Positions 1-17,323 of a DNA stretch of 17,323 bases are shown here, in pieces; positions within the stretch are counted from its first letter, which is position 1; each line of letters starts with the position of its first letter. This DNA comes from an uncultured Gammaproteobacteria bacterium. Its GTDB lineage: Bacteria; Patescibacteriota; Patescibacteriia; UBA2591; UBA6264. The translations under genes were made by a program, and so were the position numbers. The stretch covers positions 1-17,323 of the forward strand of contig CAZDOL010000003.1 in NCBI GenBank assembly GCA_964507075.1, given 5' to 3'. The notes beneath the pieces are model-generated. The model ran no database searches. It was not told the DNA's origin and saw only the letters and a program-made list of their open reading frames with translations.

Positions 1-39
1 AGCTTTTTAAAATATATACAAAAAACATAAACAAAAATT

Positions 40-114
40 TGGAGCGGGTAGGGGGAATCGAACCCCCGTCATCAGGTTGGAAACCTGAGATAATAACCAT
101 TATACGATACCCGC
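40..114 (-). tRNA. tRNA-Gly (anticodon UCC), CCA encoded
   Basis: The reverse complement reads GCGGGTA..TCAGG-TTTCCAA-CCTGA..GGGGG-TTCGATT-CCCCC-TACCCGC-T-CCA. It has a 7-bp acceptor stem, TCC at anticodon positions 34-36, a canonical T-loop and a U73 discriminator. Confidence 0.93.
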
Positions 115-127
115 CAAATTATTATTT

Positions 128-155
128 ATTATATCATATTTTTAAGAATTGACAA
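128..155 (-). promoter_or_regulatory. Sigma70-type promoter for tRNA-Gly
   Basis: On the minus strand: TTGTCA (155..150), 16-nt spacer, TATAAT (133..128). The -10 box ends 13 nt upstream of the tRNA 5' end. Confidence 0.6.
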
Positions 156-177
156 ACTGATTTATTTCCCTTATTAT
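149..177 (+). promoter_or_regulatory. Sigma70-type promoter for the adaptor/ABC operon
   Basis: TTGACA (149-154), 17-nt spacer, TATTAT (172-177). Only 9 nt separate the -10 box from the ATG at 187. Confidence 0.6.
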
Positions 178-186
178 GAATGATGT

Positions 187-1929
187 ATGAAAAAATCTAA
201 GAAAAAAATTATTATTTTTGTAATTATAATTTTTGTCTTTGTTGTGGGTTATTTGTCTTTGCGTAACAACAAGGGCACGGATTATGATTTTATTATAGCC
301 CAAAAAGATAATCTTTTTCAAGAAGTTAACGTAACAGGACAAGTGAAACCCACAGAGTCAGTTGATTTGGGGTTAGAGGTTAGCGGAAAAGTTGACAAAA
401 TTTATGTTAAAGTCGGAGATAAGGTAGTCCCCGAGCAATTATTAGTTGCCCTAGATAGTAGTGAATTGAATATTCAGTTATTGCAATTAGGGGCAGAAAC
501 AGAAAGTGCGCAGGCTAATTTAGACCAGTATAGAGCAGCGGCTGATGTCCAGCAAGCAAAGCTAGATGAATTAATGCAAGGCTCTCGCCCCGAGGAGATT
601 CAGATTGCTGAAACTAAGGTAGCAAATGCAAGAGAAGCATTGGTTGATGCTAAAAATAATTTAGAAAATATCCGTGACAAGGCGAGCATTGATTTATTGA
701 ATCTTTATAACGACATTGAAGACATACTCTATGATTCTTACTCTAAGGCTGACAGCGCTGTCAACGAACAAATAGACGAAATGTTCTCAAACGATTCCTC
801 CAGTAATCCGGAATTAACTTTTTTTACTTCTGATTCTCAAGGGAAAATTGATGTGGAGCAACAAAGAAAAAACGCAACAGAAATTCTTGATATTATAAAA
901 AATGACCTTGATAATGTTTCTTTAGAGACAGATTTTTTGGTTCTAGATAGTTTTTTAAGTAACACCAGAGATAATCTTTCGACCATTAGAGATTTATTAA
1001 ATAGCTTAAATAATGTAGTTAATTCTGCTATTAATCTCTCTCAAACTACACTTAATACATATAAAAGCAATATTAGTACTGCTCAAACAAACATCAACAC
1101 AGCACTATCTAATATTAATAGCCAAGAACAACTCATCGCCAGTCAAAGAATCGTTAATCAGAATAACATTGCTACTTCCCAGAGCAGTCTTAATGCCTAT
1201 CAAAATGCTTTATATTTAGCTGAAGATGAGTTGATTCTCAAACAATCAGGAGCAACTAATGAACAAATCAAAGCGCAAGAGGCCCTGGTATCTCAGGCAA
1301 AATTGAATATTGTTTCTCAACAAGCTCAAGTAAAACGCGCTCAAGCTAATTTACAAAGCACTAACATTCAGCTTCTTAAAATGGAATTGCGTGCTCCTTT
1401 GGAGGGAATTATAACCAAACAAGAAGCCAAGATTGGTGAAATTATTTCAGCTAACTCTTCTTTCATTACTATTATTTCAGATAATAATTTCAAAATTGAA
1501 GCCAACATTCCCGAGGTTGATATTGCTAAAATTGAATTAAATGATTCAGCAAAAGTAAGGTTGGACGCTTATGAGAGTAATGTTGTTTTTGAAGCTAATT
1601 TAATTGGTATTGACCCCGCAGAGACAATTATTGAGGGCGTTTCTACATATAAGGTAACTTTTTATTTTACCAGAGAAGATGAACGCATAAAATCTGGAAT
1701 GACTGCCGATATTGATATTTTAACTGACGAACGTCAAGGGGTTATTGTTATTCCCGGCAGGGCTGTTTTTGGAAAGGATGGAGATAAATTTGTTAGGGTT
1801 GTGGGTTTAGGGGAAATTATTTCAGAAATTAAAGTGGAAACAGGATTAAAGGGGACATTGGGTCAAATAGAAATCACAAAGGGAATAGTAGAAGGCGACA
1901 AAATAATTACTATTTTAAGAGAAAATTAA
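187..1929 (+). CDS. HlyD/MacA-family membrane-fusion (periplasmic adaptor) protein with an unusually long coiled-coil region
   Basis: N-terminal TM helix (IIIFVIIIFVFVVGYL). Split lipoyl-like motifs (VTGQVKP..VDLGLEVSGKV..VKVGDKV and LRAPLEGIITK). A long Q/A/N/S-rich helical segment and a C-terminal beta-barrel-like part. Lies directly upstream of the ABC ATPase. Confidence 0.85.
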   Translation: MKKSKKKIIIFVIIIFVFVVGYLSLRNNKGTDYDFIIAQKDNLFQEVNVTGQVKPTESVDLGLEVSGKVDKIYVKVGDKVVPEQLLVALDSSELNIQLLQLGAETESAQANLDQYRAAADVQQAKLDELMQGSRPEEIQIAETKVANAREALVDAKNNLENIRDKASIDLLNLYNDIEDILYDSYSKADSAVNEQIDEMFSNDSSSNPELTFFTSDSQGKIDVEQQRKNATEILDIIKNDLDNVSLETDFLVLDSFLSNTRDNLSTIRDLLNSLNNVVNSAINLSQTTLNTYKSNISTAQTNINTALSNINSQEQLIASQRIVNQNNIATSQSSLNAYQNALYLAEDELILKQSGATNEQIKAQEALVSQAKLNIVSQQAQVKRAQANLQSTNIQLLKMELRAPLEGIITKQEAKIGEIISANSSFITIISDNNFKIEANIPEVDIAKIELNDSAKVRLDAYESNVVFEANLIGIDPAETIIEGVSTYKVTFYFTREDERIKSGMTADIDILTDERQGVIVIPGRAVFGKDGDKFVRVVGLGEIISEIKVETGLKGTLGQIEITKGIVEGDKIITILREN

Positions 1930-1934
1930 GAAGC

Positions 1935-2666
1935 ATGTCTACTCAAAAAATTCCCTTAATTCTCGTTAAGGGCTTAGAAAAAATTTATTATAATGGTGAA
2001 ATAAGCACTCCAGCCGTTCAAGGGGTGTCTTTTGTTGTTCAAGAGGGTCAATTTGTTGCGATAATCGGAGCTTCTGGTTCTGGCAAATCCACATTGCTTC
2101 ATATTTTGGGATTTTTAGAGAGACAAACAAAGGGTGATTATTTATTTGACGGCAAAACAATGAGCGCCTATTCAGAAGAAGATTTGGCTCACATTAGGAA
2201 CAAGAAAATAGGATTTGTTTTTCAATCTTTTAATCTTTTAAAAAAGACAACTGTCTTTAATAATGTTAGGTTGCCTTTAATTTATTCTAAAGTGAAAGAA
2301 TCTTTATGGGATGACTTAACAATGGAAGCTATAGAAAAGGTTGGGCTTACTCATCGTAAAGATTATGAAACATCTAAGTTGTCGGGTGGAGAAAAGCAAA
2401 GAGTAGCAATAGCAAGGGCTTTGGTTAATAAACCAAAGATTATTTTTGCCGATGAGCCAACAGGTAACCTTGATTCGCGTTCTGGACAAGTCATTATGGA
2501 TATTATTCAAAAATTACACGAGAGTGGACATACCATTGTTTTGATTACTCATGAAAAATACACTTCTGAGATGGCAGAAAGAATAATAAAACTTAGGGAT
2601 GGAAAAATCGTTAGTGATTTGTCGGTAGATAGTCGTCATTTTGCTAAAGAAGGTTTTGTTAAATAA
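1935..2666 (+). CDS. ABC transporter ATP-binding protein (MacB/LolD-type)
   Basis: Walker A GASGSGKST, ABC signature LSGGEKQRVAIARAL, Walker B IIFADEPT, H-loop LITHE. Starts 5 nt after the adaptor stop. Confidence 0.93.
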   Translation: MSTQKIPLILVKGLEKIYYNGEISTPAVQGVSFVVQEGQFVAIIGASGSGKSTLLHILGFLERQTKGDYLFDGKTMSAYSEEDLAHIRNKKIGFVFQSFNLLKKTTVFNNVRLPLIYSKVKESLWDDLTMEAIEKVGLTHRKDYETSKLSGGEKQRVAIARALVNKPKIIFADEPTGNLDSRSGQVIMDIIQKLHESGHTIVLITHEKYTSEMAERIIKLRDGKIVSDLSVDSRHFAKEGFVK

Positions 2667-2782
2667 AGGGCTTTGTCTAACAAAATCAAACCCGTAGGGT
2701 GAAGATTTTTCAGCAACAAAACCTTTACCCTGTTAAATAAAATCTTCGATTTTAATTTGCTTCGCAAATTATTTAACAGGGT
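2650..2782. repeat. Nested perfect inverted repeats forming a multi-hairpin intergenic element between the ATPase and permease genes
   Basis: An 11-bp stem AAGGTTTTGTT (2650-2660, inside the last codons of the ATPase) pairs with AACAAAACCTT (2715-2725). A 14-bp stem ACCCTGTTAAATAA (2727-2740) pairs with TTATTTAACAGGGT (2769-2782). The second stem encloses two TTC-triloop hairpins, TAAAATC-TTC-GATTTTA (2738-2754) and AATTTGC-TTC-GCAAATT (2754-2770). There is also ACCC-GTA-GGGT at 2690-2700. Confidence 0.7.
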
Positions 2783-2839
2783 ACTCAAAAATATAATAAA
2801 ATTTAGTTCGCTTCGCTCCGAAATTTTAACATTTTTGGT

Positions 2840-4087
2840 ATGCACATTAGATTCATTTTACAAACTTCTCTAAAAGCTATAATAACGAATAAATCTCGTT
2901 CTGTTTTAACGGTTCTAGGCATTGTTATAGGTATCAGTTCCATTGTTTTAATTATGTCTATTGGTCAGGCAGCTGAATCTTTAATATTAAGAGAAGTGGA
3001 AACTCTGGGTGGAAATTTTGTTCAAATTAATCCTGGCAAAGAAATGAAGGGTCCCAGCGATATGGCAACTAATTTACTGTTAGATTCTTTAAAAGAAAGA
3101 GATATCAAGGCCTTAAAAAATAAAAGTAATGTTCCTGACCTGAAAGACATTACTCCCTCTTTAATGGTGCCAAGTAGTGTTTCTTATAAAGGAGAGATTT
3201 ATCGGCCGACTATTCTTGGCTGGACTGCTGATTGGTTGGGTAAACTTTACGATATCTATCCAGCAGAGGGAAATTATTTTACAGAAGATGACATTAAATC
3301 TCGAAGAGCAGTAGCCGTTATTGGACAGAAAGTAAAGGAAGAGCTTTTTGGTTCTGCTGATGCTATTGGAGAAAAAATTAAAATTAAAAATAAATATTTT
3401 AGAATAGTAGCAATCCTTCCTCCAAGCGGTTCAGTTTCTTCTTTTATGGATGTAGATAAATTTATTGTTATTCCATATTCTGTTGCTCAAAAATATATTC
3501 TTGGCATTGATTATTATCAGGAGATTCATATTATGGCCCAAAGCGAAGCGGTAGTTCCCAGAATGGTGGAAGACATTAAGTTAACTTTGAGAGATTTACA
3601 CGACATTGAAGAAGGAGAAGATGATGATTTTAGTGTAACAACCCAGGGCGATATAATTGACACCATAAAGTTGGTTACCGACGTCTTAACCATTCTTTTG
3701 ACTTCAGTGGCTGCGATTTCTTTAGTTGTTGGTGGAGTGGGAATTATGAATATTATGTTAGTTTCGGTTACAGAGAGAACTCAAGAAATTGGCTTAAGGA
3801 AGGCGTTGGGAGCAACTAGCAAAAATGTTTTAACTCAATTTCTAATTGAATCAATAATTTTGACAGCCATGGGGGGCATTATAGGAATCATTTTAGGAAT
3901 AGGCCTTTCTTTTCTATCAGCTTTAGTTTTAGCAAAAGCTGTTGGCCCAGGATGGCAGTTTAGTGTTTCAATTCAAGCAATTTTTCTGGGTTTAGGGGTG
4001 GCTGGTTCAGTTGGTTTAATTTTCGGATTTTATCCGGCTCGCAAAGCCGCTAAGCTTAGTCCGATTGAAGCCCTAAGACACGAGTAA
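2840..4087 (+). CDS. ABC transporter permease, FtsX/MacB family
   Basis: N-terminal TM helix (RSVLTVLGIVIGISSIVLIM), a large extracytoplasmic domain, then a C-terminal FtsX-type 3-TM bundle (ERTQEIGLRKALGA..YPARKAAKLSPIEALRHE). Confidence 0.9.
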   Translation: MHIRFILQTSLKAIITNKSRSVLTVLGIVIGISSIVLIMSIGQAAESLILREVETLGGNFVQINPGKEMKGPSDMATNLLLDSLKERDIKALKNKSNVPDLKDITPSLMVPSSVSYKGEIYRPTILGWTADWLGKLYDIYPAEGNYFTEDDIKSRRAVAVIGQKVKEELFGSADAIGEKIKIKNKYFRIVAILPPSGSVSSFMDVDKFIVIPYSVAQKYILGIDYYQEIHIMAQSEAVVPRMVEDIKLTLRDLHDIEEGEDDDFSVTTQGDIIDTIKLVTDVLTILLTSVAAISLVVGGVGIMNIMLVSVTERTQEIGLRKALGATSKNVLTQFLIESIILTAMGGIIGIILGIGLSFLSALVLAKAVGPGWQFSVSIQAIFLGLGVAGSVGLIFGFYPARKAAKLSPIEALRHE

Positions 4088-4140
4088 AAACAAAAAAATA
4101 CTATCAAATTTTAATAGTATTATCTATCAGCGATTTATTT

Positions 4141-4169
4141 GGGAACCGAGTTCCCAAGTGTTTTAATTT
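4141..4169 (+). terminator. Candidate intrinsic terminator after the permease gene
   Basis: GGGAAC-CGA-GTTCCC hairpin (4141-4155) followed by AAGTGTTTTAATTT. The T-tract is interrupted, so this is a weak call. Confidence 0.4.
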
Positions 4170-4173
4170 GGTC

Positions 4174-4210
4174 GGTACGCTGAGCGTACCATGGGCCAAG
4201 CTAAGCTTGG
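4174..4210 (-). other. tRNA-Pro 3' trailer with two triloop hairpins, the first containing the encoded CCA
   Basis: In tRNA sense: CCAAGC-TTA-GCTTGG (4210..4196), CCCAT, then GGTACGC-TCA-GCGTACC (4190..4174). Same architecture as the tRNA-Ser trailer. Confidence 0.75.
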
Positions 4211-4283
4211 TCGGGACGGAGAGACTCGAACTCTCGATTTCCTGCTCCCAAAGCAGGCGCCTTAGCCACTAGGCTACGCCCCG
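4208..4283 (-). tRNA. tRNA-Pro (anticodon UGG), CCA encoded
   Basis: The reverse complement reads CGGGGCG-TA-GCCT..AGGC-G-CCTGC-TTTGGGA-GCAGG-AAATC-GAGAG-TTCGAGT-CTCTC-CGTCCCG-A-CCA, a 76-nt cloverleaf with TGG at positions 34-36. Confidence 0.93.
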
Positions 4284-4284
4284 T

Positions 4285-5805
4285 TTAATACATTTGCGTT
4301 AGATTGATATTGGTATAATAATATTTTAATATTTGGGAATAATTTGCTCCTTGGCGAGCAGCAGCCATTCCTCCAACTTGAGGAAGACCTACTCCGTGCC
4401 CAAGCATACTTTGTCCTTGGCTAGGTGGGTCTAATTTTGGCTGTAAGTAAGCAACGGGCGCAGCAGTCATATTTGCTTCATAAGAAGATATGGTTGAACC
4501 ATTACTATGGGCGAAATAATATGCCAATATAGGCTCATTATCATATGTAGCAATAATCCCTTTAGTTGAATCTACTGCTACTGATGTATTGGATGCCCTC
4601 ATCTCTCTGTTATACCCTCTGTAGACTTGGTCAGCCTGAGTACTGCGTAAAGTAAAAAAAGGTTCTCCGTTAGGAGTGTTCGTATATTTTGGCGTTAAAT
4701 AACGGAAGAGACCGTAAGTTCTAGCAGCAATTTTTTGAGCTTTTAAGAATTCAAATGGAGCTAAATCTGACACCTCTGCAACTCCTTTTAGATATTTTTC
4801 TAAAGAGAGTTCATTGATTAACCAAAGACGTCCAGTATTAGGATTATATTGAACTTCAACATCACCACGAAATTCATTATCATTAACATTCTGCCCCCAG
4901 AAAGGACCGTTAGTCCAGCTATTGATTTCAAATACATTCTCATCATTTGATGATAATTTTATATAAGAATCAGTCATTAATAATCTTTTTCCATTACTAT
5001 CATTAAGAAAATAGTATCCAGTCTCATAATTATAATCTATTTCTATGATTTCTCCAGCTGTATTGCGAACTAAAAGTTTATTGTTTTGGTCGTAAATATC
5101 GTAAAGTTTATTATTGAAGCTAGAGATTCTAAAGGGTAAGTAATCATTCTTTTCTTCCGAATCTACGAAAAGAAGTCCAACACGCACATTAGGTCCGTCC
5201 GCAAGTTGATTCCAGCGAAGTTGATTTTCAATAGTTATTGAAGGAGAAACAGTTTGCCAAAATAATTGTTCTGGTTCTGGCTCAGGAATGGGCTCTGGTG
5301 ATGGTTCTGGCTCAGGAATGGGCTCTGGTTCACTTGCTTCCTCTGCTTCGCTTAAAACCTTAATTGCTATTTCTATCTCTCCTCCTGGAATGATAGTTGA
5401 GCCGGCAAAAAGATTAAATTTTTCCCATTTTATTCCGGGTTCAGATGGGGCATTAACCCTAAACCTAAAGAGCGCTTCGCCTTCTTGCTCAATGGTTAAA
5501 ACGGGGTTAACGCGATTTGGTGTATAGCTATTATACCAAGTAGGGTGGCTAAATTTACTTTTCATCCCGCTTATGGTTCTGAGAGTTACAGCTTGAGCCC
5601 CATCCCCTCGCCAATATTGGGAGCCAATATTTTTAAATTTTACCCAGAATTCTAAAGATTGGCCTGAGTAAAGCTCTGGCAAGGAAATATGACTTTGTTC
5701 CAATCTTTTTGCTTGATATATATTTTCAGCGCGAGTTGTTAATGGCAGAACAAGAAAAGTAAGAGCAAATATTAATCCTATTTTAGGTAAGGTAAATTTT
5801 GACAT
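4285..5805 (-). CDS. Secreted SpoIID/LytB-domain protein with an N-terminal Ig-like domain and a Pro/Glu linker
   Basis: Signal peptide (LIFALTFLVLPLTTRA). Linker EPEPIPEPEPSPEPIPEPEPE. C-terminal SpoIID hallmarks: LEKYLKGVAEV..FLKAQKIAARTY, DQVYRGY, AVDSTKGIIATY, YFAHSNGST, GHGVGLPQVGGMAAARQG..ILKYYY. Confidence 0.85.
   Translation of the reverse strand: MSKFTLPKIGLIFALTFLVLPLTTRAENIYQAKRLEQSHISLPELYSGQSLEFWVKFKNIGSQYWRGDGAQAVTLRTISGMKSKFSHPTWYNSYTPNRVNPVLTIEQEGEALFRFRVNAPSEPGIKWEKFNLFAGSTIIPGGEIEIAIKVLSEAEEASEPEPIPEPEPSPEPIPEPEPEQLFWQTVSPSITIENQLRWNQLADGPNVRVGLLFVDSEEKNDYLPFRISSFNNKLYDIYDQNNKLLVRNTAGEIIEIDYNYETGYYFLNDSNGKRLLMTDSYIKLSSNDENVFEINSWTNGPFWGQNVNDNEFRGDVEVQYNPNTGRLWLINELSLEKYLKGVAEVSDLAPFEFLKAQKIAARTYGLFRYLTPKYTNTPNGEPFFTLRSTQADQVYRGYNREMRASNTSVAVDSTKGIIATYDNEPILAYYFAHSNGSTISSYEANMTAAPVAYLQPKLDPPSQGQSMLGHGVGLPQVGGMAAARQGANYSQILKYYYTNINLTQMY
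5273..5328. repeat. In-frame 30-bp tandem repeat encoding the PE-rich linker
   Basis: GGTTCTGGCTCAGGAATGGGCTCTGG occurs at 5273-5298 and again at 5303-5328, a 30-bp period equal to 10 codons on the minus-strand CDS. Confidence 0.85.
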
Positions 5806-5811
5806 GTTTTC

Positions 5812-5840
5812 ACTTTAACCAGAATTAAATTAGAAGTCAA
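5812..5840 (-). promoter_or_regulatory. Sigma70-type promoter for the SpoIID-domain gene
   Basis: On the minus strand: TTGACT (5840..5835), 17-nt spacer, TAAAGT (5817..5812). Only 6 nt (GAAAAC) precede the ATG at 5805. Confidence 0.6.
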
Positions 5841-5844
5841 TATC

Positions 5845-5873
5845 TTGATACTCTCTTCTTTTCTTGATATCAT
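5845..5873 (+). promoter_or_regulatory. Sigma70-type promoter for the flippase/ligase genes
   Basis: TTGATA (5845-5850), 17-nt spacer, TATCAT (5868-5873). Only 6 nt (AAGATT) precede the ATG at 5880. Confidence 0.6.
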
Positions 5874-5879
5874 AAGATT

Positions 5880-7301
5880 ATGTTTTTAATTCAGAAAATT
5901 GGGCGCAATACATTAGTACATTTTTGCAGTAAGATTATTAGTCTTTTTTTAAATGTTTTTGTTTTTGCATTAATCGCGCGTTATTTGGGCGCAACTGGTT
6001 TTGGAGAGTTTACTATTGTTATTGCTTATCTTCAGGGCTTTGCAATTTTTGCTGATTTAGGATTGTATATGACTTTTATTCAGATGCTTTCTTTGCCAAA
6101 TGCAAATGAAGAAAAGATTGCCAGCAATTTTTTTACGATTCGTTTAGTTTCTAGTATTTTTCTTTTATCTCTTGCTCCCGCAATATGTCTATTAATCCCA
6201 CAATATTCTCATCTTGTTAAGTTGGGCATTGCCGTCACCGCAATTTCTTTTCTTTTCGGTTCTTTGAGCCAACTTTTAACTGGTTTTTTTCAGAAAAAAA
6301 TGGAAATGTTAAAAGTTGCAATTGCTGAAATAGTTAGTAAGTTAGTTTTTGTCAGCTTGATGTGTTTTGTTGTTTATTCAGATATTGGTTTTTTGAGTAT
6401 TTTGGGTGTAGTAGTTGTTGGCGGATTCGTAAATTTTATTTTACTTTATTTATTTTCGCGTAAATTTGTTAAGATTTCTTTGCGTTTTGATAAAACAATT
6501 TGGCGTAATGCGATTAAAAAAACATGGCCTATTGGGTTATCAATTATTTTAACTACAATTTATTTTAAAGGAGATACTATTATTCTTTCTTTATTTAAAT
6601 CATCACAAGAAGTAGGTATTTATGGCGCTGCTTATAGAATATTAGAGGCCTTAATTATGTTTCCGCCAATTTTTATGGGTTTAATTCTGCCGCATTTAAC
6701 TTTGGCTTGGGCCAAGAAAGATATTTTTACTTTTAAGCGAATTTTTCAAAAATCATTTGATTTTTTCGCTCTTATGACCATACCATTGATAGTCGGTGTT
6801 TTGTTTTTAGCTAAACCTTTAATGGTGTTTATCGCTGGCTCAGAATTTGCTATTTCTGCAGAACCACTTAAAATCCTAATCTTCGCAACAACGCTTATTT
6901 TTTTCGGGAGTTTAGTTAGCCATGCGATTATTGCCATGAACAAACAACGTACAATGCTTAGGTTTTATTGTTTAGCGGCAGTAGTGGCATTGATTGGATA
7001 TTTGATTTTTATCCCACGCTATTCTTATTATGGAGCGGCGTATGTGACCATTGTTGCCGAGTTTATAATTACCATTTCTGCTTTTGTAATTATTAAACAA
7101 ACTAGTAAATTTTCTCCTTCTTTAAAAATTTTTAGACCAGTAATTTTATCTAGTTTAGTAATGGGACTTGTTTTGTTTATTTTTAACCAAGCCAATTTAT
7201 TTTTATTAATTCTTTTAGCAATTATTGTTTACACCTCGGTTTTATATTTATCAGGAGGGATAAACAAAAAAATGATTAGAGATATAATTAAAACAAATTA
7301 G
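5880..7301 (+). CDS. MOP-superfamily polysaccharide/lipid-linked oligosaccharide flippase (Wzx/MurJ-like)
   Basis: About 14 predicted hydrophobic helices over 473 aa, with the typical polysaccharide-biosynthesis-protein layout. Adjacent to an O-antigen-ligase-like gene. Confidence 0.75.
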   Translation: MFLIQKIGRNTLVHFCSKIISLFLNVFVFALIARYLGATGFGEFTIVIAYLQGFAIFADLGLYMTFIQMLSLPNANEEKIASNFFTIRLVSSIFLLSLAPAICLLIPQYSHLVKLGIAVTAISFLFGSLSQLLTGFFQKKMEMLKVAIAEIVSKLVFVSLMCFVVYSDIGFLSILGVVVVGGFVNFILLYLFSRKFVKISLRFDKTIWRNAIKKTWPIGLSIILTTIYFKGDTIILSLFKSSQEVGIYGAAYRILEALIMFPPIFMGLILPHLTLAWAKKDIFTFKRIFQKSFDFFALMTIPLIVGVLFLAKPLMVFIAGSEFAISAEPLKILIFATTLIFFGSLVSHAIIAMNKQRTMLRFYCLAAVVALIGYLIFIPRYSYYGAAYVTIVAEFIITISAFVIIKQTSKFSPSLKIFRPVILSSLVMGLVLFIFNQANLFLLILLAIIVYTSVLYLSGGINKKMIRDIIKTN

Positions 7302-7302
7302 T

Positions 7303-8625
7303 ATGTTTTATCCTCTTGTATTCTTCTCTATATTCTTTATTTGGTTAAGCTGGAATTATCAGAAATGGTCTTTATTTTTGATTTTAGCGCTTTTACCCGC
7401 TTATCAAATTCGTTTTCAAATCCTAGAAATTCCTTTGACATTTTTAGAGATTTTAATTTTGGTTTTATTTATTGTTTGGTTGATTAAGAAGATAAAATAC
7501 AGGCAATATCCTATTTTTGATTATAAAAAGCCGAGAATATGGTTTTGGTCAATTTTAGCATGGTTTTTAATATCAATAATAGCAGTATTTATATCCCCTG
7601 ATTTGCGTGCTGGGGCTGGCATTTGGAAGGCCTATTTCTTAGAGCCAATCTTATTCCTTATTGTGTTTTTGGATATAATAAGAAATAAAAAGGATTTAAG
7701 GTTAGCAGTTGGGACTTTAATTTGTTCGGGCTTGCTGGTTACTTTTTATGCTTTTTATCAAAAAATTACTGGTCAAGGGGTTTGGAGCACTGAAATTTGG
7801 GGACAACCGAAAATTTTAAGGGCAACTGGGCCCTTTCCTCATCCCAATTTTTTGGGTCTGTATCTTGGTCCTTTATTTATGCTGGGATTAGGGTATATAT
7901 TTTTAAATTTCAAAAAAAACATCCCATTTATTGTTAAAACCATATTTTTTGCAGTATTATTTTTAGGTTCTCTTGCTTTTGCTAAATCTGAAGGAGCAAT
8001 AATAGCTATCTTTGTTGCCTTGCTCTTTTGTGGTGTGCTTTATAAGCCAGTCAGAAAATGGGTTTTGGTTCTGATTTTAGTTCTTATTTTGCTATTGTTG
8101 TCTTTTTCCGTTTCACGTCATTATTTGACAGAGAAAATATTTTTTCAAGACCTTTCTGGTCGTTTGAGGGTTAATATTTGGAAAGGTGCTTCAGAAATAT
8201 TAAAAGAAAAATCCGTTTTAGGAGCAGGGTTAAATGGATATCGTGTTTTAGCTCCTCAATATCAAGAACGTTATTACGACCAAAGCACCCAAGAATTGAT
8301 TTCCGTTGAAACACATCCTTATCCACATAATTTGCTTTTAACAATTTGGCTGGAGCTTGGATTATTAGGTTTGGTTATTTTTTTCTTGATTCTGTTCCAA
8401 TTTTTTAAAAAAGGTTTTAAAAATTTTAAAAAAGAACCAATCTTAATTGGTTCAATTATGGGAGCAATGGCAGTTATTCTAATCCATGGATTGGTTGATA
8501 CCCCATATTTTAAAAATGATTTAGCAATTCTGTTTTGGGTAATTATAGGAGCAATGATAATTATTTCACGGAGAGGTACCGAAGTGGTCATAACGGCATC
8601 GCCTCGAAAGCGATTGGTCCCGTAA
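7303..8625 (+). CDS. O-antigen ligase/polymerase-like (Wzy_C domain) membrane protein
   Basis: Polytopic membrane protein containing the Wzy_C-type segment AKSEGAIIAIFVALLF ... THPYPHNLLLTIWLELGLLGLVIF. Starts 1 nt after the flippase stop. Its last 56 nt run into tRNA-Ser. Confidence 0.75.
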   Translation: MFYPLVFFSIFFIWLSWNYQKWSLFLILALLPAYQIRFQILEIPLTFLEILILVLFIVWLIKKIKYRQYPIFDYKKPRIWFWSILAWFLISIIAVFISPDLRAGAGIWKAYFLEPILFLIVFLDIIRNKKDLRLAVGTLICSGLLVTFYAFYQKITGQGVWSTEIWGQPKILRATGPFPHPNFLGLYLGPLFMLGLGYIFLNFKKNIPFIVKTIFFAVLFLGSLAFAKSEGAIIAIFVALLFCGVLYKPVRKWVLVLILVLILLLLSFSVSRHYLTEKIFFQDLSGRLRVNIWKGASEILKEKSVLGAGLNGYRVLAPQYQERYYDQSTQELISVETHPYPHNLLLTIWLELGLLGLVIFFLILFQFFKKGFKNFKKEPILIGSIMGAMAVILIHGLVDTPYFKNDLAILFWVIIGAMIIISRRGTEVVITASPRKRLVP

Positions 8626-8660
8626 GGGGCACGTGGGTTCGAATCCCTCCCTCTCCGCCA
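8570..8660 (+). tRNA. tRNA-Ser (anticodon CGA), long variable arm, CCA encoded
   Basis: GGAGAGG-TA-CCG..CGG..ATCGC-CTCGAAA-GCGAT-TGGTCCCGTAAGGGGCAC-GTGGG-TTCGAAT-CCCTC-CCTCTCC-G-CCA. Class II tRNA with CGA in the anticodon loop; the T-stem has one U-U mismatch. Confidence 0.88.
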
Positions 8661-8693
8661 CGCTCAGCGTGGCCATTGGGACGCTTAGCGTCC
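8657..8693 (+). other. tRNA-Ser 3' trailer with two triloop hairpins, the first containing the encoded CCA
   Basis: (G)CCACGC-TCA-GCGTGG(C) at 8657-8673, then CCATTG, then GGACGC-TTA-GCGTCC at 8679-8693. Confidence 0.75.
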
Positions 8694-8716
8694 GGCTAGT
8701 TAATTTTATTTATATT

Positions 8717-9160
8717 ATGAAAAATTGTTTTTTTTCGAAAACGAAAATACCGAAAAATTTACCCAAGGAAATGCAAAAAATAATCCATAAAATAAAGGAA
8801 TCATCAAATCAAAAGCAATGTTTAAGGAATGTCTATGAGATTATAACCGACAGATATCGTGGATATAGATTTGAGACATATACTAAATTATTTCAGATGT
8901 TTACGCTTGACGTTCAAAAGTTGTGGAACGGGACTAATTTTATCCACTGTAACAACGCTAACTATTTGATGAGAATATTATTGGTCAAAAGTGGTTTTTT
9001 TAATAATAATAACATTGAAAATAAATGGACATTAGTATGGTATATTTCACCTCATCAATATCTGCGAATAAAATTAAATAACCGTCAATATATCAACATA
9101 GACATTTGGGGCGCAGCTCATGGAATTAAATTTGGTGATTATGCCCACGGATTTCATTAA
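8717..9160 (+). CDS. Transglutaminase-like superfamily protein (putative Cys-His-Asp enzyme), copy 1
   Basis: 147 aa from the first ATG outside the tRNA. The motif layout fits a transglutaminase core: FIHCNNANYLMRILLVKSG (Cys), PHQYLRIKL (His), YINIDIW (Asp). The ORF-track GTG start at 8633 lies inside tRNA-Ser and is rejected. Confidence 0.6.
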   Translation: MKNCFFSKTKIPKNLPKEMQKIIHKIKESSNQKQCLRNVYEIITDRYRGYRFETYTKLFQMFTLDVQKLWNGTNFIHCNNANYLMRILLVKSGFFNNNNIENKWTLVWYISPHQYLRIKLNNRQYINIDIWGAAHGIKFGDYAHGFH

Positions 9161-9167
9161 TTATTTT

Positions 9168-9196
9168 TTGACAAATCAAAAAAAGTGTTTTAGATT
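9168..9196 (+). promoter_or_regulatory. Sigma70-type promoter inside repeat copy A, reading toward the 74-aa ORF
   Basis: TTGACA (9168-9173), 17-nt spacer, TAGATT (9191-9196). It is followed immediately by the inverted repeat CCGCTCT (9197-9203)-N16-AGAGCGG (9220-9226), which spans the expected transcription start. Confidence 0.55.
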
Positions 9197-9296
9197 CCGC
9201 TCTATCAAAGGATTACAAGAGAGCGGTTTAAGGGGACTGTCCCCATGAAAATAAAGGTCGCAAATTATATAAACATTAATTTTTTAACTTAATATT

Positions 9297-9521
9297 ATGA
9301 TTGTAGAAATTGTATTAAAGAATAAACCAAGTCTGGAACTTGAAGGATATGAAAAAATAGAGCTTCCCAATGGAGCTATCTTTGCAAACCCGGTAGAAAA
9401 AAGGGTAGAGATAGTAGTGAAACAACATCCAGATGGAAGGATAAGTGTATTTACAGACAAATCAGAAGTAATAAAATCTGTGGTTCAATCCGGAGAAGTA
9501 GTTGATATTCACGCAAAATAG
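9297..9521 (+). CDS. Hypothetical 74-aa protein, the unique cargo between the two repeat copies
   Basis: ATG-initiated ORF with balanced, beta-strand-like composition (IVEIVLKN..RVEIVVKQHPDGRISVF). I recognise no family. Confidence 0.45.
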   Translation: MIVEIVLKNKPSLELEGYEKIELPNGAIFANPVEKRVEIVVKQHPDGRISVFTDKSEVIKSVVQSGEVVDIHAK

Positions 9522-9599
9522 TTGGTATGCTCAAAGTTTCTGAATAGTGGGCTAACCTTTGGGACGCTTAACGTCCGGCTAGTTAATTTTATTTATATT

Positions 9600-10043
9600 A
9601 TGAAAAATTGTTTTTTTTCGAAAACGAAAATACCGAAAAATTTACCCAAGGAAATGCAAAAAATAATCCATAAAATAAAGGAATCATCAAATCAAAAGCA
9701 ATGTTTAAGGAATGTCTATGAGATTATAACCGACAGATATCGTGGATATAGATTTGAGACATATACTAAATTATTTCAGATGTTTACGCTTGACGTTCAA
9801 AAGTTGTGGAACGGGACTAATTTTATCCACTGTAACAACGCTAACTATTTGATGAGAATATTATTGGTCAAAAGTGGTTTTTTTAATAATAATAACATTG
9901 AAAATAAATGGACATTAGTATGGTATATTTCACCTCATCAATATCTGCGAATAAAATTAAATAACCGTCAATATATCAACATAGACATTTGGGGCGCAGC
10001 TCATGGAATTAAATTTGGTGATTATGCCCACGGATTTCATTAA
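9600..10043 (+). CDS. Transglutaminase-like superfamily protein, copy 2 (coding sequence identical to copy 1)
   Basis: Same 147-aa product as 8717..9160. The ORF-track TTG start at 9522 adds an unsupported N-terminal extension. Confidence 0.6.
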   Translation: MKNCFFSKTKIPKNLPKEMQKIIHKIKESSNQKQCLRNVYEIITDRYRGYRFETYTKLFQMFTLDVQKLWNGTNFIHCNNANYLMRILLVKSGFFNNNNIENKWTLVWYISPHQYLRIKLNNRQYINIDIWGAAHGIKFGDYAHGFH

Positions 10044-10050
10044 TTATTTT

Positions 10051-10079
10051 TTGACAAATCAAAAAAAGTGTTTTAGATT
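10051..10079 (+). promoter_or_regulatory. Duplicate of the TTGACA-N17-TAGATT promoter (copy B), reading toward the palindrome cluster and DUF523 gene
   Basis: TTGACA at 10051-10056 and TAGATT at 10074-10079, followed by the same CCGCTCT-N16-AGAGCGG inverted repeat. Confidence 0.55.
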
Positions 10080-10120
10080 CCGCTCTATCAAAGGATTACA
10101 AGAGAGCGGTTTAAGGGGAC

Positions 10121-10158
10121 AGTCCCCTTTGAAAAAGTTAGTCCCCTTTGAAAAAGTT
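10121..10158 (+). repeat. Exact 19-bp tandem duplication
   Basis: AGTCCCCTTTGAAAAAGTT occurs at 10121-10139 and again at 10140-10158. Confidence 0.9.
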
Positions 10159-10204
10159 ATAATTTTAAAATTTAAGGGGACTGTCCCCATGAGTTGTCCC
10201 CCTG

Positions 10205-10228
10205 AAGCTCGCGTTAGTAGCGGGTTTT
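10205..10228 (+). terminator. Candidate intrinsic terminator or attenuator
   Basis: AAGCTCGC (10205-10212) pairs with GCGGGTTT (10220-10227) using two G-U pairs, with loop GTTAGTA. The 3' arm runs into a T-tract. Confidence 0.4.
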
Positions 10229-10289
10229 AAGATAAAAAATCCGATTTGGCAAAAAATGGACCAAAATAGACAAAAATTTTAATTATATT

Positions 10290-10745
10290 ATGAAAATTGT
10301 AAGTGCCTGCTTGGCAGGAATTAATTGTAATTATAAAAACGAAGCAAAACCTTCTCAGAAAGTTATTGAATTAGTTAAGCAAGGCAAAGCAATTCCTGTC
10401 TGTCCAGAACAATTGGGCGGTTTAACTACTCCGCGAACTCCTGCTGAGCAGAAAGATAATAAAGTTTTTACCAAAGACGGAGAAGATGTTACCTTCCAAT
10501 TTGAAAAAGGCGCGAAAGAGGCCTTGAAAATTGCTAAACTTGCGAATTGTGATGAAGCAATTTTAAAATCTAAATCTCCTTCCTGCGGTTCAGGTAAGAT
10601 TTATGACGGTACTTTTTCTGGGAAATTAATTGACGGAGACGGTGTATTCGTTAAAATTCTGAAAAAGAATAATATTAAAGTATTAACTGAAGACGAAATT
10701 TTTGCATCGGTCAGGCCCAGAAAGGGCATAAACAGAGCAAATTAA
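10290..10745 (+). CDS. DUF523 family protein (TudS-like putative thiouracil desulfurase, Fe-S)
   Basis: Family signature segments: VSACLAGINCNYK, PVCPEQLGGLTTPRTPAE, KSKSPSCGSGKIYDGTF. Confidence 0.8.
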   Translation: MKIVSACLAGINCNYKNEAKPSQKVIELVKQGKAIPVCPEQLGGLTTPRTPAEQKDNKVFTKDGEDVTFQFEKGAKEALKIAKLANCDEAILKSKSPSCGSGKIYDGTFSGKLIDGDGVFVKILKKNNIKVLTEDEIFASVRPRKGINRAN

Positions 10746-11152: not shown

Positions 11153-11908
11153 ATGCAGAGATTGAACCAAATAGCTGCTAAAGAGCAAGAGATAATTAAA
11201 GGTTTTTTTAATTGGTCATCTTTTGTAATTCCATGTTTGCCAGAATGGGTTAATGATGAAATTATCGAACATTGGTTAACACTTAATTTTGATTTGCATT
11301 ATCTTCCCAAGGTTTCCTTAGAACAGGATATGAATTTGTCGTTATGGAAAGATAAACCAGATGATGTTTTTTACGAAAAAATAAAAAAAGGCAAAATTGC
11401 AATGGATTCTAAAGATTTACAAGGAAAATGGGTCTTAATTGATGCTCGCGACAAGCCCAAAAAATTAAATCGCTGGATAAGCTCTAGCGATGTCTGGTTT
11501 TTAGAAAAAATGGGCTTTAATTTCAGGAAATGTTTGAAAAAGAAAAATAAACAATTATATCAAAATGAATATTTGACCAAAATTTTAAATGCCCAAGGAT
11601 TTGTCACTCGGTTTTGTTTGTCTATCAACGATATTAAAAAAATATTGCCATTTATTTTGAGTATTTTGAAAATTGACTCAAGCCACATTATTCGCTTGCC
11701 TCGTTTTATAGAATATAATTATTTGGGCAATGTTTTTTATCCCCAATGGGCTACTACCAAAACTTGGGAATGGTTTGAGGATAAATTTGAACAAAAACAG
11801 AACTTAGCTGGCGGATGGAAGTCAGTTGGCTCTTTGGGTTGGGACCCACCTACGTTTTGGAGCACGATTTTAAGTTTTCGGCCAGTTATTGAAATTTCAA
11901 CAAAATGA
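11153..11908 (+). CDS. Hypothetical 251-aa protein (Trp-rich C-terminus)
   Basis: Starts 5 nt after the previous stop. Its TGA stop overlaps the next start as ATGA. No family recognised. Confidence 0.6.
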   Translation: MQRLNQIAAKEQEIIKGFFNWSSFVIPCLPEWVNDEIIEHWLTLNFDLHYLPKVSLEQDMNLSLWKDKPDDVFYEKIKKGKIAMDSKDLQGKWVLIDARDKPKKLNRWISSSDVWFLEKMGFNFRKCLKKKNKQLYQNEYLTKILNAQGFVTRFCLSINDIKKILPFILSILKIDSSHIIRLPRFIEYNYLGNVFYPQWATTKTWEWFEDKFEQKQNLAGGWKSVGSLGWDPPTFWSTILSFRPVIEISTK

Positions 11909-17165: not shown

Positions 17166-17207
17166 TTAAAATACCTTAATTTATATATAATGATAATTTA
17201 ATTTCAA

Positions 17208-17323
17208 GGTTCTGCGAGCACAGCGAGCAGGTTCTTACTATGAGCGTAGCGCGAATAGCAAGGTTCTACGAGCACAGCGAGCAGGTTCTTACTATGAGCG
17301 TAGCGCGAATAGCAAGGTTCTAC
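17208..17323. repeat. GC-rich 54-bp tandem repeat truncated by the window end
   Basis: Unit GGTTCT[G/A]CGAGCACAGCGAGCAGGTTCTTACTATGAGCGTAGCGCGAATAGCAA occurs at 17208-17261 and 17262-17315. The first 8 nt of a third unit are at 17316-17323. One mismatch: 17214 g versus 17268 a. Confidence 0.9.

Follow-up and report, generated by a model that had tools for sequence, protein, structure and literature searches.

Shyamala, Schneider and Ames reportedly described, in EMBO J in 1990, tandem chromosomal duplications of Salmonella and E. coli that were mediated by repetitive extragenic palindromic (REP) elements. In Proteobacteria, REP elements and REP-associated tyrosine transposases (RAYTs) constitute the REP/RAYT systems, or REPtrons and REPINs (PMC3116915, PMC3337134, PMC5581495, PMC6006769); definitions of REPtron and REPIN are found in PMC6006769 and PMC5581495, and atypical REP classes that lack the GT[AG]G head are described in PMC6006769. 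A further point of comparison is the 'peel and paste' transposition of IS200/IS605 elements and their non-autonomous derivatives (PMC6006769). Here we analyse 17,323 nt of DNA from an uncultured Patescibacteria population (the whole stretch is referred to as the window, and coordinates are positions in it), which has a G+C content of 33.7% and four tRNAs. Two copies of a 569-bp repeat, each with a gene for the same 147-amino-acid (aa), putatively transglutaminase-like protein, bracket a unique segment (U) of 314 bp that carries a gene for a 74-aa protein. The arrangement is probably a real segmental duplication that ends in hairpin repeats and is now subject to gene conversion and loop-out deletion.

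The duplication had been proposed in a first-pass annotation of this DNA, and base-by-base comparison together with a repeat finder bears it out (Table 1). Positions 8676-9244 and 9559-10127 match at an offset of 883 bp with exactly two mismatches, 8688 (G/A) and 9238 (T/A), and base by base the identity ends abruptly at 8675 and 9245. The annotation had placed both differences at hairpin or palindrome centres, which holds for 9238, the exact centre of a GGGGAC-N-GTCCCC palindrome, but not for 8688, which lies in a stem 2 nt off centre. The final 6 nt of the apparent identity are forced by the symmetry of the palindrome, and true homology therefore ends at the palindrome centre. The remaining parts listed at first pass are all present, namely the identical 147-codon open reading frames (ORFs), the promoter-like TTGACA-N17-TAGATT (9168-9196 and 10051-10079), the inverted repeat, the palindromes and a third copy of the right junction, which the repeat finder returns as the 22-nt TTTAAGGGGACTGTCCCCATGA at 9227-9248 and again at 10171-10192. 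Palindromes or hairpins do lie at the repeat ends as had been claimed, on the left as well as on the right.

The left end falls in the trailer of tRNA-Ser, which consists of two hairpins that together fold at -14.8 kcal/mol (z -4.2), the first outside the duplication and the second inside it. The tRNA-Pro of the window (4208-4283, minus strand) has a trailer (4165-4207) of like layout, in which CCA is followed by hairpin 1 (CCAAGCT-T-AGCTTGG), 5 nt and hairpin 2 (GGTACGCT-C-AGCGTACC), both GC-rich; the gap between hairpins is 5 nt in both trailers, which also have a ACGCTNAGCGT-like core in common. This double hairpin is a lineage-specific tRNA-trailer motif not found with tRNA-Gly and tRNA-Ala. 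Given the like layout of the two trailers, hairpin 2 (8678-8693) is native to the tRNA-Ser trailer, in agreement with the first-pass view that the left hairpin is of tRNA-trailer type. Since copy B has hairpin 2 without hairpin 1 and without a tRNA, it is the derived copy, and copy A stands at the native position. The change from G to A at 8688/9571 (9571 in copy B) makes hairpin 2 of copy B the weaker of the two.

The position beside a tRNA had also been taken for the classic site of acquired DNA, a suggestion that does not fit the repeat, which contains no tRNA sequence, or the relatives of its gene, which do not adjoin tRNAs. An island at a tRNA attachment site (att) was considered and rejected, since the repeat begins 16 nt past the tRNA end and has no tRNA sequence inside. 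A tRNA-targeted island or an integron cassette would be expected to have an integrase gene and either a direct repeat made of the tRNA 3' end or attC sites; the window lacks recombinase and integrase genes altogether, as the annotation had said of integrases and transposases. An Rfam scan at gathering and permissive thresholds returned tRNAs only. A Wzy_C (O-antigen-ligase-like) ORF at 7303-8625 overlaps the tRNA-Ser by 56 nt, so that tRNA sequence supplies its last ~18 codons and the stop codon; it is omitted from some public gene calls (contig L001) and kept in others (L089), and the overlap may reflect an old rearrangement that truncated the gene at tRNA-Ser.

The right end of each copy is formed by an element of ~85 nt whose relatives lie at the flanks of RAYT genes. 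In a sister lineage (contig L072; 84.5% DNA identity over the genes from the 251-aa ORF at 11153-11908 to ClpP), the syntenic island holds the 74-aa gene, a copy of the module that follows the 147-aa gene (83% identical to window 10046-10135), three GGGGACNGTCCCC palindromes and a 202-aa Y1 transposase. Among NCBIfam models, the one that fits this transposase best is "REP-associated tyrosine transposase" (NF047646, E 5.5e-20, 71.7 bits against a cut-off of 80), well above IS200. Its gene is flanked by inverted 16-nt arms that are 100% complementary (7097-7112 and 7922-7937 of L072), with an inner inverted repeat at 7162-7182 and 7852-7872. Homologues of ~70% identity are laid out in the same manner on contigs from three other samples (L100, L101 and L102), and the RAYT-like genes carry HFH and YxxxN (YIDLNAVRAGLV) motifs. 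All four genes have GGGGACTGTCCCC in the upstream flank and GGGGACAGTCCCC in the downstream flank; in L100-L102, GGGGACTGTCCC(C/T) lies ~115 nt upstream and GGGGACAGTCCCC ~88 nt downstream. The L072 island (1-7900), which lies upstream of the homologue of window ORF 11153-11908, also contains an N6/N4 DNA methyltransferase gene, three unannotated genes and, in addition to the RAYT gene, a radical-SAM gene whose best NCBIfam match is prokaryotic viperin, below threshold; with this mix it looks like a variable island of defence type.

When aligned with the RAYT gene flanks, window 10040-10132 and 10171-10292 (as reverse complement) fall into one family with them, for which nine sequences give the consensus TGGTCAATTTTTTGCCAAAT ... 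CCGCT ... GGGGACAGTCCCC, ending in GGGGACWGTCCCC. RNAalifold on the nine members retains the palindrome hairpin as the only conserved structure, on which ground a conserved structured RNA or operator at CCGCTCT/AGAGCGG was rejected. The TTGACA and TAGATT hexamers and the CCGCTCT/AGAGCGG pairing are peculiar to the window and unconserved in the family. With a module shared with RAYT flanks and hexamers that are unconserved, what had looked like promoter, operator and palindrome is a RAYT-flank repeat element, and the first-pass reading of the promoter and inverted repeat as designed parts of a gene module was abandoned. In its inverted form, the element makes up the upstream region of the DUF523 gene to the right of the repeat.

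The palindrome GGGGACNGTCCCC occurs in the window three times in perfect form and once with two mismatches, against 0.07 expected by chance, and the four lie within 9.2-10.8 kb. Another perfect copy, GGGGACAGTCCCC at 18-30 of contig L096, ~3 kb left of the window start and upstream of a nucleotide-kinase-like gene, indicates that the palindrome is not confined to the duplicated locus. Palindromes P2 and P3, extended to 10115-10129 and 10174-10188, form 15-nt arms that are 100% complementary and 44 nt apart according to the repeat finder; as single-stranded DNA the doublet folds at -25.9 kcal/mol (z -6.0), and its adjoining arms are diverged copies of the element in opposite orientation. P1 is chimeric, with the left context of P2 and the right 11 nt of P3. 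A 19-nt tandem duplication next to P2 creates an extra half-palindrome; it is found in single-copy as well as two-copy haplotypes (see below) and is accordingly older than, or independent of, the 883-bp polymorphism. A 75-codon ORF at 10003-10230, which public assemblies list as a 68-aa gene, extends across the repeat element, P2, the 19-nt tandem repeat and P3; in all likelihood it is a false gene call on repetitive DNA.

This family resembles REP/RAYT systems in that a short intergenic palindrome flanks a RAYT-type Y1 (HUH) transposase gene in inverted orientation (L072, L100-L102) and has additional intergenic copies, as in L100, where 6 of 7 palindromes (up to 2 mismatches) in 12.6 kb are intergenic. 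The inverted P2/P3 doublet is able to form a long hairpin as in REPINs, and within NCBIfam the transposase matches the RAYT model best, though with a score below the cut-off. Unlike the Proteobacterial systems, the host phylum is Patescibacteria; unlike canonical REP elements, the perfect 6-1-6 palindrome has no GT[AG]G or CGTC head and is flanked by TTTAA and TTT(A/G)AAA, and the conserved unit, of ~85 nt, exceeds theirs in length and has TTTTTTGCCAAAT as an inner motif. A literature search found no paper describing REP elements in bacteria of the Candidate Phyla Radiation (CPR).

A part for the transposase in the duplication is inferred only. It is conceivable, at rather long odds, that the 569-bp hairpin-to-palindrome unit was copied by the RAYT-type Y1 transposase of the lineage acting in trans on single-stranded DNA. 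Such a unit would resemble IS200/IS605 elements and their non-autonomous derivatives, being bounded by hairpins on one strand, one per end, in a lineage where a Y1 transposase is available. It differs from them in that there is no transposase (tnpA) gene inside the unit, the two end hairpins are dissimilar, the only two copies are close neighbours with none at an unrelated site, and the closest relatives of the gene lack the flanks found in the repeat; moreover, the Y1 gene of the lineage lies between inverted repeats, as in a REPtron and unlike in IS200.

Searching for exact protein matches brought up independent assemblies of this population that are at least 99.9% identical to the window, and comparison with them reveals three states of the locus. 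The two-copy structure is present in at least four samples besides that of the window: JGI 3300028272 (L001), 3300028191 (L094) and 3300028162 (L097), and in part 3300028168 (L096). Another state is that of contigs (L090, L091 and L098) that stop within the repeat or at its edge, as is expected of a true repeat. The single-copy state is seen in one 57.9-kb MEGAHIT contig (L089/L095), which lacks the 74-aa gene and reads tRNA-Ser, hairpin 1, hairpin 2 (with G), 147-aa gene, P2, P3 and DUF523; it equals the window minus 883 bp except for one single-nucleotide polymorphism (SNP) at 7769. A third site at which copies differ, 8802 in copy A and 9685 in copy B (Ser29/Leu29), appears in other assemblies: the window is C/C, L001 is T/T, L094 and L097 are C/T, and the single-copy contig has C.

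These data bear on the possibility that the genome has one copy and that the second arose in assembly, through a loop by way of U that the assembler made out of mixed strains or a small circle outside the chromosome. The 549-bp repeat interior is longer than short reads, several contigs end in the repeat and one MEGAHIT contig has a single copy, all of which such an artefact would produce. It is nevertheless very unlikely, since the two-copy structure recurs across the samples named above and U is joined to the repeat on both sides wherever it is assembled, so that a linear chromosome would need two copies. Furthermore, the SNP at 8802/9685 sits 114 nt from an end-specific variant, a distance over which short reads can phase it, and in two assemblies it is phased differently between the copies; the copies are thus distinguishable in the C/T assemblies, which means that two copies exist.

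The series of C/C, C/T and T/T states is what gene conversion between the copies would give. Copies A and B of the C/T haplotype are distinguished by 3 of their 569 sites, as against 1-2 sites per ~12 kb between allelic contigs; it follows that either the duplication is older than the diversity sampled, or a slightly diverged donor supplied copy B. The latter option belongs to an insertion polymorphism, in which the single-copy form is ancestral and an 883-bp unit, the 74-aa gene with a slightly diverged repeat copy, entered by single crossover of a small circle (Campbell-type), by import from a related strain or by a Y1 transposase acting on a hairpin-bounded unit. Such an insertion would account for a single-copy haplotype that equals the two-copy form minus exactly 883 bp, for the 22-nt direct repeat, which brackets 922 bp in the manner of an attachment-site pair, and for the identity of U with the sister lineage, which at 91.6% (9246-9520 against 4951-5224 of L072) exceeds the 84.5% of the neighbouring core genes.

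High identity of U is expected anyway, given how conserved the 74-aa family is, and the tRNA-Ser trailer hairpin in copy B implies that this copy derives from the present locus. A donor arrangement with U beside the repeat was not found at any other locus. In addition, 7769T is common to the single-copy contig and two-copy contigs, and the two-copy contigs have both 7769 alleles, a pattern that makes secondary loss by recombination between the 549-bp cores the more parsimonious explanation, albeit in a small sample. On balance, the comparison favours derivation of the single-copy form by deletion over its being ancestral, and we consider the insertion polymorphism unlikely, though less so than either of the preceding alternatives.

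The reading we prefer, a segmental duplication with continuing gene conversion and loss, would then run as follows. The original unit, lying directly after tRNA-Ser, would have comprised trailer hairpin 2, the 147-aa gene and the ~85-nt element ending in GGGGACWGTCCCC. Recombination, or strand or template switching, at dispersed palindromes and hairpins would have placed a second hairpin-to-palindrome stretch downstream of the unrelated and separately conserved 74-aa gene. Thereafter, the 549-bp identical core would drive gene conversion between the copies and, occasionally, loop-out of one copy together with the 74-aa gene, which would give the single-copy haplotype. The adjacency of the 147-aa and 74-aa genes would be an accident of rearrangement in a variable, repeat-rich island. 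Such a history is like that of the REP-mediated duplications of Salmonella and E. coli in having a join-point in a dispersed extragenic palindrome and in being unstable, with reversion through recombination between long repeats. It is unlike them in that the copies are not adjacent and bracket an unrelated 314-bp segment, the left end is a tRNA-trailer hairpin and not a REP element, and the duplication is a natural polymorphism in metagenomes and was not selected in the laboratory.

Several points weigh against this reading. Copy number and haplotype frequencies rest on short-read assemblies made by other groups, some of which may have a study and an assembler in common. Instead of gene conversion, the C/C and T/T states could reflect consensus calling by the assembler, and the single-copy form could be ancestral after all. 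By tblastn the 17-kb window has no RAYT gene, in which respect it is also unlike a REPtron, and the palindrome is sparsely sampled here, with copies counted in ~21 kb only (4 perfect ones, 3 of them at this locus). Finally, a simple tandem duplication was rejected on the ground that the copies are not adjacent; the order copy A, U, copy B is impossible from a single event of that kind. A Campbell-type entry of an 883-bp circle, or action of a Y1 transposase on the hairpin-bounded unit, is a possible founding event.

Table 1. Features of the duplicated locus and its borders (window coordinates)
Feature	Position	Strand	Basis or remark
tRNA-Ser, anticodon CGA, CCA encoded	8570..8660	+	ARAGORN; Rfam tRNA 50.4 bits
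Trailer hairpin 1, CCACGCT-C-AGCGTGG, outside duplication	8658..8672	.	Folding; tRNA-Pro trailer has matching layout
Repeat copy A, 569 bp	8676..9244	+	Native place, after tRNA-Ser trailer
Trailer hairpin 2, copy A, GGGACGCT-T-AGCGTCC, left repeat end	8678..8693	.	Folding; comparison with tRNA-Pro
147-aa gene, putatively transglutaminase-like, copy A	8717..9160	+	ORF; homologues; AlphaFold2 and Foldseek
RAYT-flank type element E(+), copy A	9161..9244	+	Alignment; 83% identical to L072 6313-6402; holds TTGACA-N17-TAGATT and CCGCTCT/AGAGCGG; ends in palindrome P1 (9232-9244, centre T)
Unique segment U, 314 bp, between the copies	9245..9558	+	Base-by-base comparison
74-aa gene, highly conserved small-protein family	9297..9521	+	32 homologue clusters; AlphaFold2
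Repeat copy B, 569 bp, derived copy	9559..10127	+	Carries copied trailer hairpin 2 at 9561-9576
147-aa gene, putatively transglutaminase-like, copy B	9600..10043	+	Identical to copy A ORF
RAYT-flank type element E(+), copy B	10044..10127	+	Alignment; ends in palindrome P2 (10115-10127, centre A)
19-nt perfect tandem duplication, AGTCCCCTTTGAAAAAGTT x2	10121..10158	+	Repeat finder; overlaps right half of P2
Inverted RAYT-flank type element E(-)	10176..10263	-	Alignment; from palindrome P3 (10176-10188, centre T) to GATTTGGCAAAAAATGGACCA
DUF523 / 2-thiouracil desulfurase family gene, right neighbour	10290..10745	+	Pfam PF04463, E 2e-45
Degenerate palindrome P4, GGTGACTGTCCCT, just past DUF523 stop codon	10751..10763	.	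Palindrome scan

The 147-aa protein belongs to a large, unnamed family of ~146-147-aa proteins from Patescibacteria and from metagenome-assembled genomes labelled DPANN, with 146 clusters in a word-indexed search and 332 representatives at E up to 1e-3 in an exhaustive profile search of 1.84 billion sequences. The exact window sequence has no database record, a metagenome scan with the protein returned one distant locus and no close relatives, and scans of viral contigs with this family and the 74-aa family gave no matches. Neither the protein nor 42 family members match Pfam or NCBIfam models even at E up to 10, and a sequence-profile search of the PDB returned noise only. The transglutaminase-like assignment made at first pass gains support from prediction of the structure by AlphaFold2 (AF2; predicted local distance difference test score, pLDDT, 87.9; predicted template modelling, TM, score 0.85), for which the best 11 Foldseek matches in the PDB are all transglutaminase-like (TglA, LapG, a TGase, BDI_1141 and TgpA; probability 0.63-1.0, E 0.011-0.36, query-normalised TM 0.49-0.59). 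Residues C78, H113 and D129 are invariant among 42 family sequences; in the model, C78 opens helix 78-92, H113 is in strand 111-119 and D129 lies just past strand 125-128. The protein is thus supported as having a transglutaminase-like fold and as a putative cysteine enzyme.

LapG/BTLCP, TgpA and TglA (PDB 4fgq, 6g49 and 9crn) are alike in predicted fold (probability 0.92-1.0, TM 0.54-0.59) and in having an invariant Cys at the start of a helix, then His and Asp on successive strands or just beyond them. In contrast with them, the 147-aa protein is a minimal stand-alone domain without a signal peptide or extra domains, and its identity to these structural matches is 8-16%, with no match at the level of Pfam, NCBIfam or PDB sequences. 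Literature searches found no paper on S. pyogenes TglA and none linking Patescibacteria to transglutaminase-like proteins.

The nearest relatives of the gene (79%, 73% and 71% protein identity) share the coding sequence and ~9 nt upstream only, which makes the hairpin and the downstream module lineage-specific. In 70 other species-level genomes, the family is single-copy with unconserved neighbours, and no second copy, tRNA or DUF523 gene lies nearby; clustering of the neighbours gave no conserved partner (at most 4 of 70 loci). In two distant relatives, L033 and L037 (Moraniibacteriota-type), the family gene directly follows a Polysacc_synt flippase gene near Wzy-like genes, as in the window, a neighbourhood not seen in the other 68 loci that could be chance or a weak envelope-glycan link.

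The 74-aa ORF, regarded as an orphan at first pass, turns out to have 32 homologue clusters of 69-96% identity, the full-length ones all exactly 74 aa long, with a mean column identity of 83% across the family. The AF2 model (pLDDT 89) has no convincing fold match, its hits, weak and inconsistent, being to ribosomal L6 and to halves of TBP-like folds (TM below 0.5, E no lower than 0.057). The final 38 nt of U, from the 74-aa stop codon to copy B, have no match anywhere. Elsewhere the gene stands beside the radical-SAM gene in L072 and, in L080 (5001-5225) and L092 (2717-2941), on contigs with archaeal-type genes, among them those for GatD, diphthamide synthase and a wyosine radical-SAM enzyme; its neighbours in L072 showed no homology to those in L080. 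The family's conservation and its distribution, over contigs with bacterial (Patescibacteria) as well as archaeal-type genes, suggest strong selection and possibly cross-domain transfer.

The first-pass annotation had speculated that the two proteins form an enzyme/partner pair, such as effector and immunity. In the corresponding explanation of the locus, it would be a selected functional module in which the 74-aa protein is an immunity, inhibitor or substrate partner and the duplication, equipped with a promoter and operator-like palindromes of its own, is kept for dosage or regulation. Both genes are intact and conserved, a near-consensus promoter-like site lies upstream of the 74-aa gene, and the two-copy form is the commoner one among the assemblies. 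The two families are nonetheless apart elsewhere: a 74-aa homologue lies within 5 kb of a 147-aa family gene in none of 70 genomes, and no 147-aa neighbour is found beside the 74-aa genes (L072-L082, L092 and L093; 0 of 3 independent contexts, which are unrelated to one another), so that a check of co-occurrence gave no joint loci outside this population. As the families are never adjacent elsewhere, an effector/immunity or toxin-antitoxin pairing is not supported by genomic context. The promoter hexamers and the CCGCTCT/AGAGCGG pairing are unconserved in the element family, promoter-like matches are weakly enriched in the window (19 against 12.4 +/- 4.2 expected), and a haplotype without the 74-aa gene persists. 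We therefore regard selection for a functional module as the least probable of the explanations considered, and an extremely unlikely one.

Two further repeats were noted away from the locus. A 54-nt tandem repeat at 17205-17323 (98% matches, at least 2.2 copies) is intergenic, precedes a ClpB-like gene and runs past the window end (L097 11141-11335), and a perfect 30-nt tandem duplication at 5272-5329 lies in a low-complexity region inside a SpoIID-domain gene (4285-5805, minus strand).

CPR genomes are small, and the usual description of them is that they contain few repeats. Duplication of this kind is in itself ordinary, and REP-joined duplications and REP/RAYT systems are already known. 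What the locus offers is a segmental duplication observed directly at the population level in a reduced genome, with apparent gene conversion and loss, and a link between these events and a family of palindromic repeats that accompanies RAYT-type transposases in Patescibacteria. Two small-protein families, both conserved and unnamed, are targets for characterisation: the putative cysteine enzyme, which is minimal and transglutaminase-like, and the 74-aa protein, whose contexts look bacterial as well as archaeal. Were the RAYT of the lineage to have acted in trans, a REP/RAYT system of Patescibacteria would be able to duplicate or move whole hairpin-bounded genes, and the REP-rich island by tRNA-Ser would be a site of cassette shuffling driven by that system.

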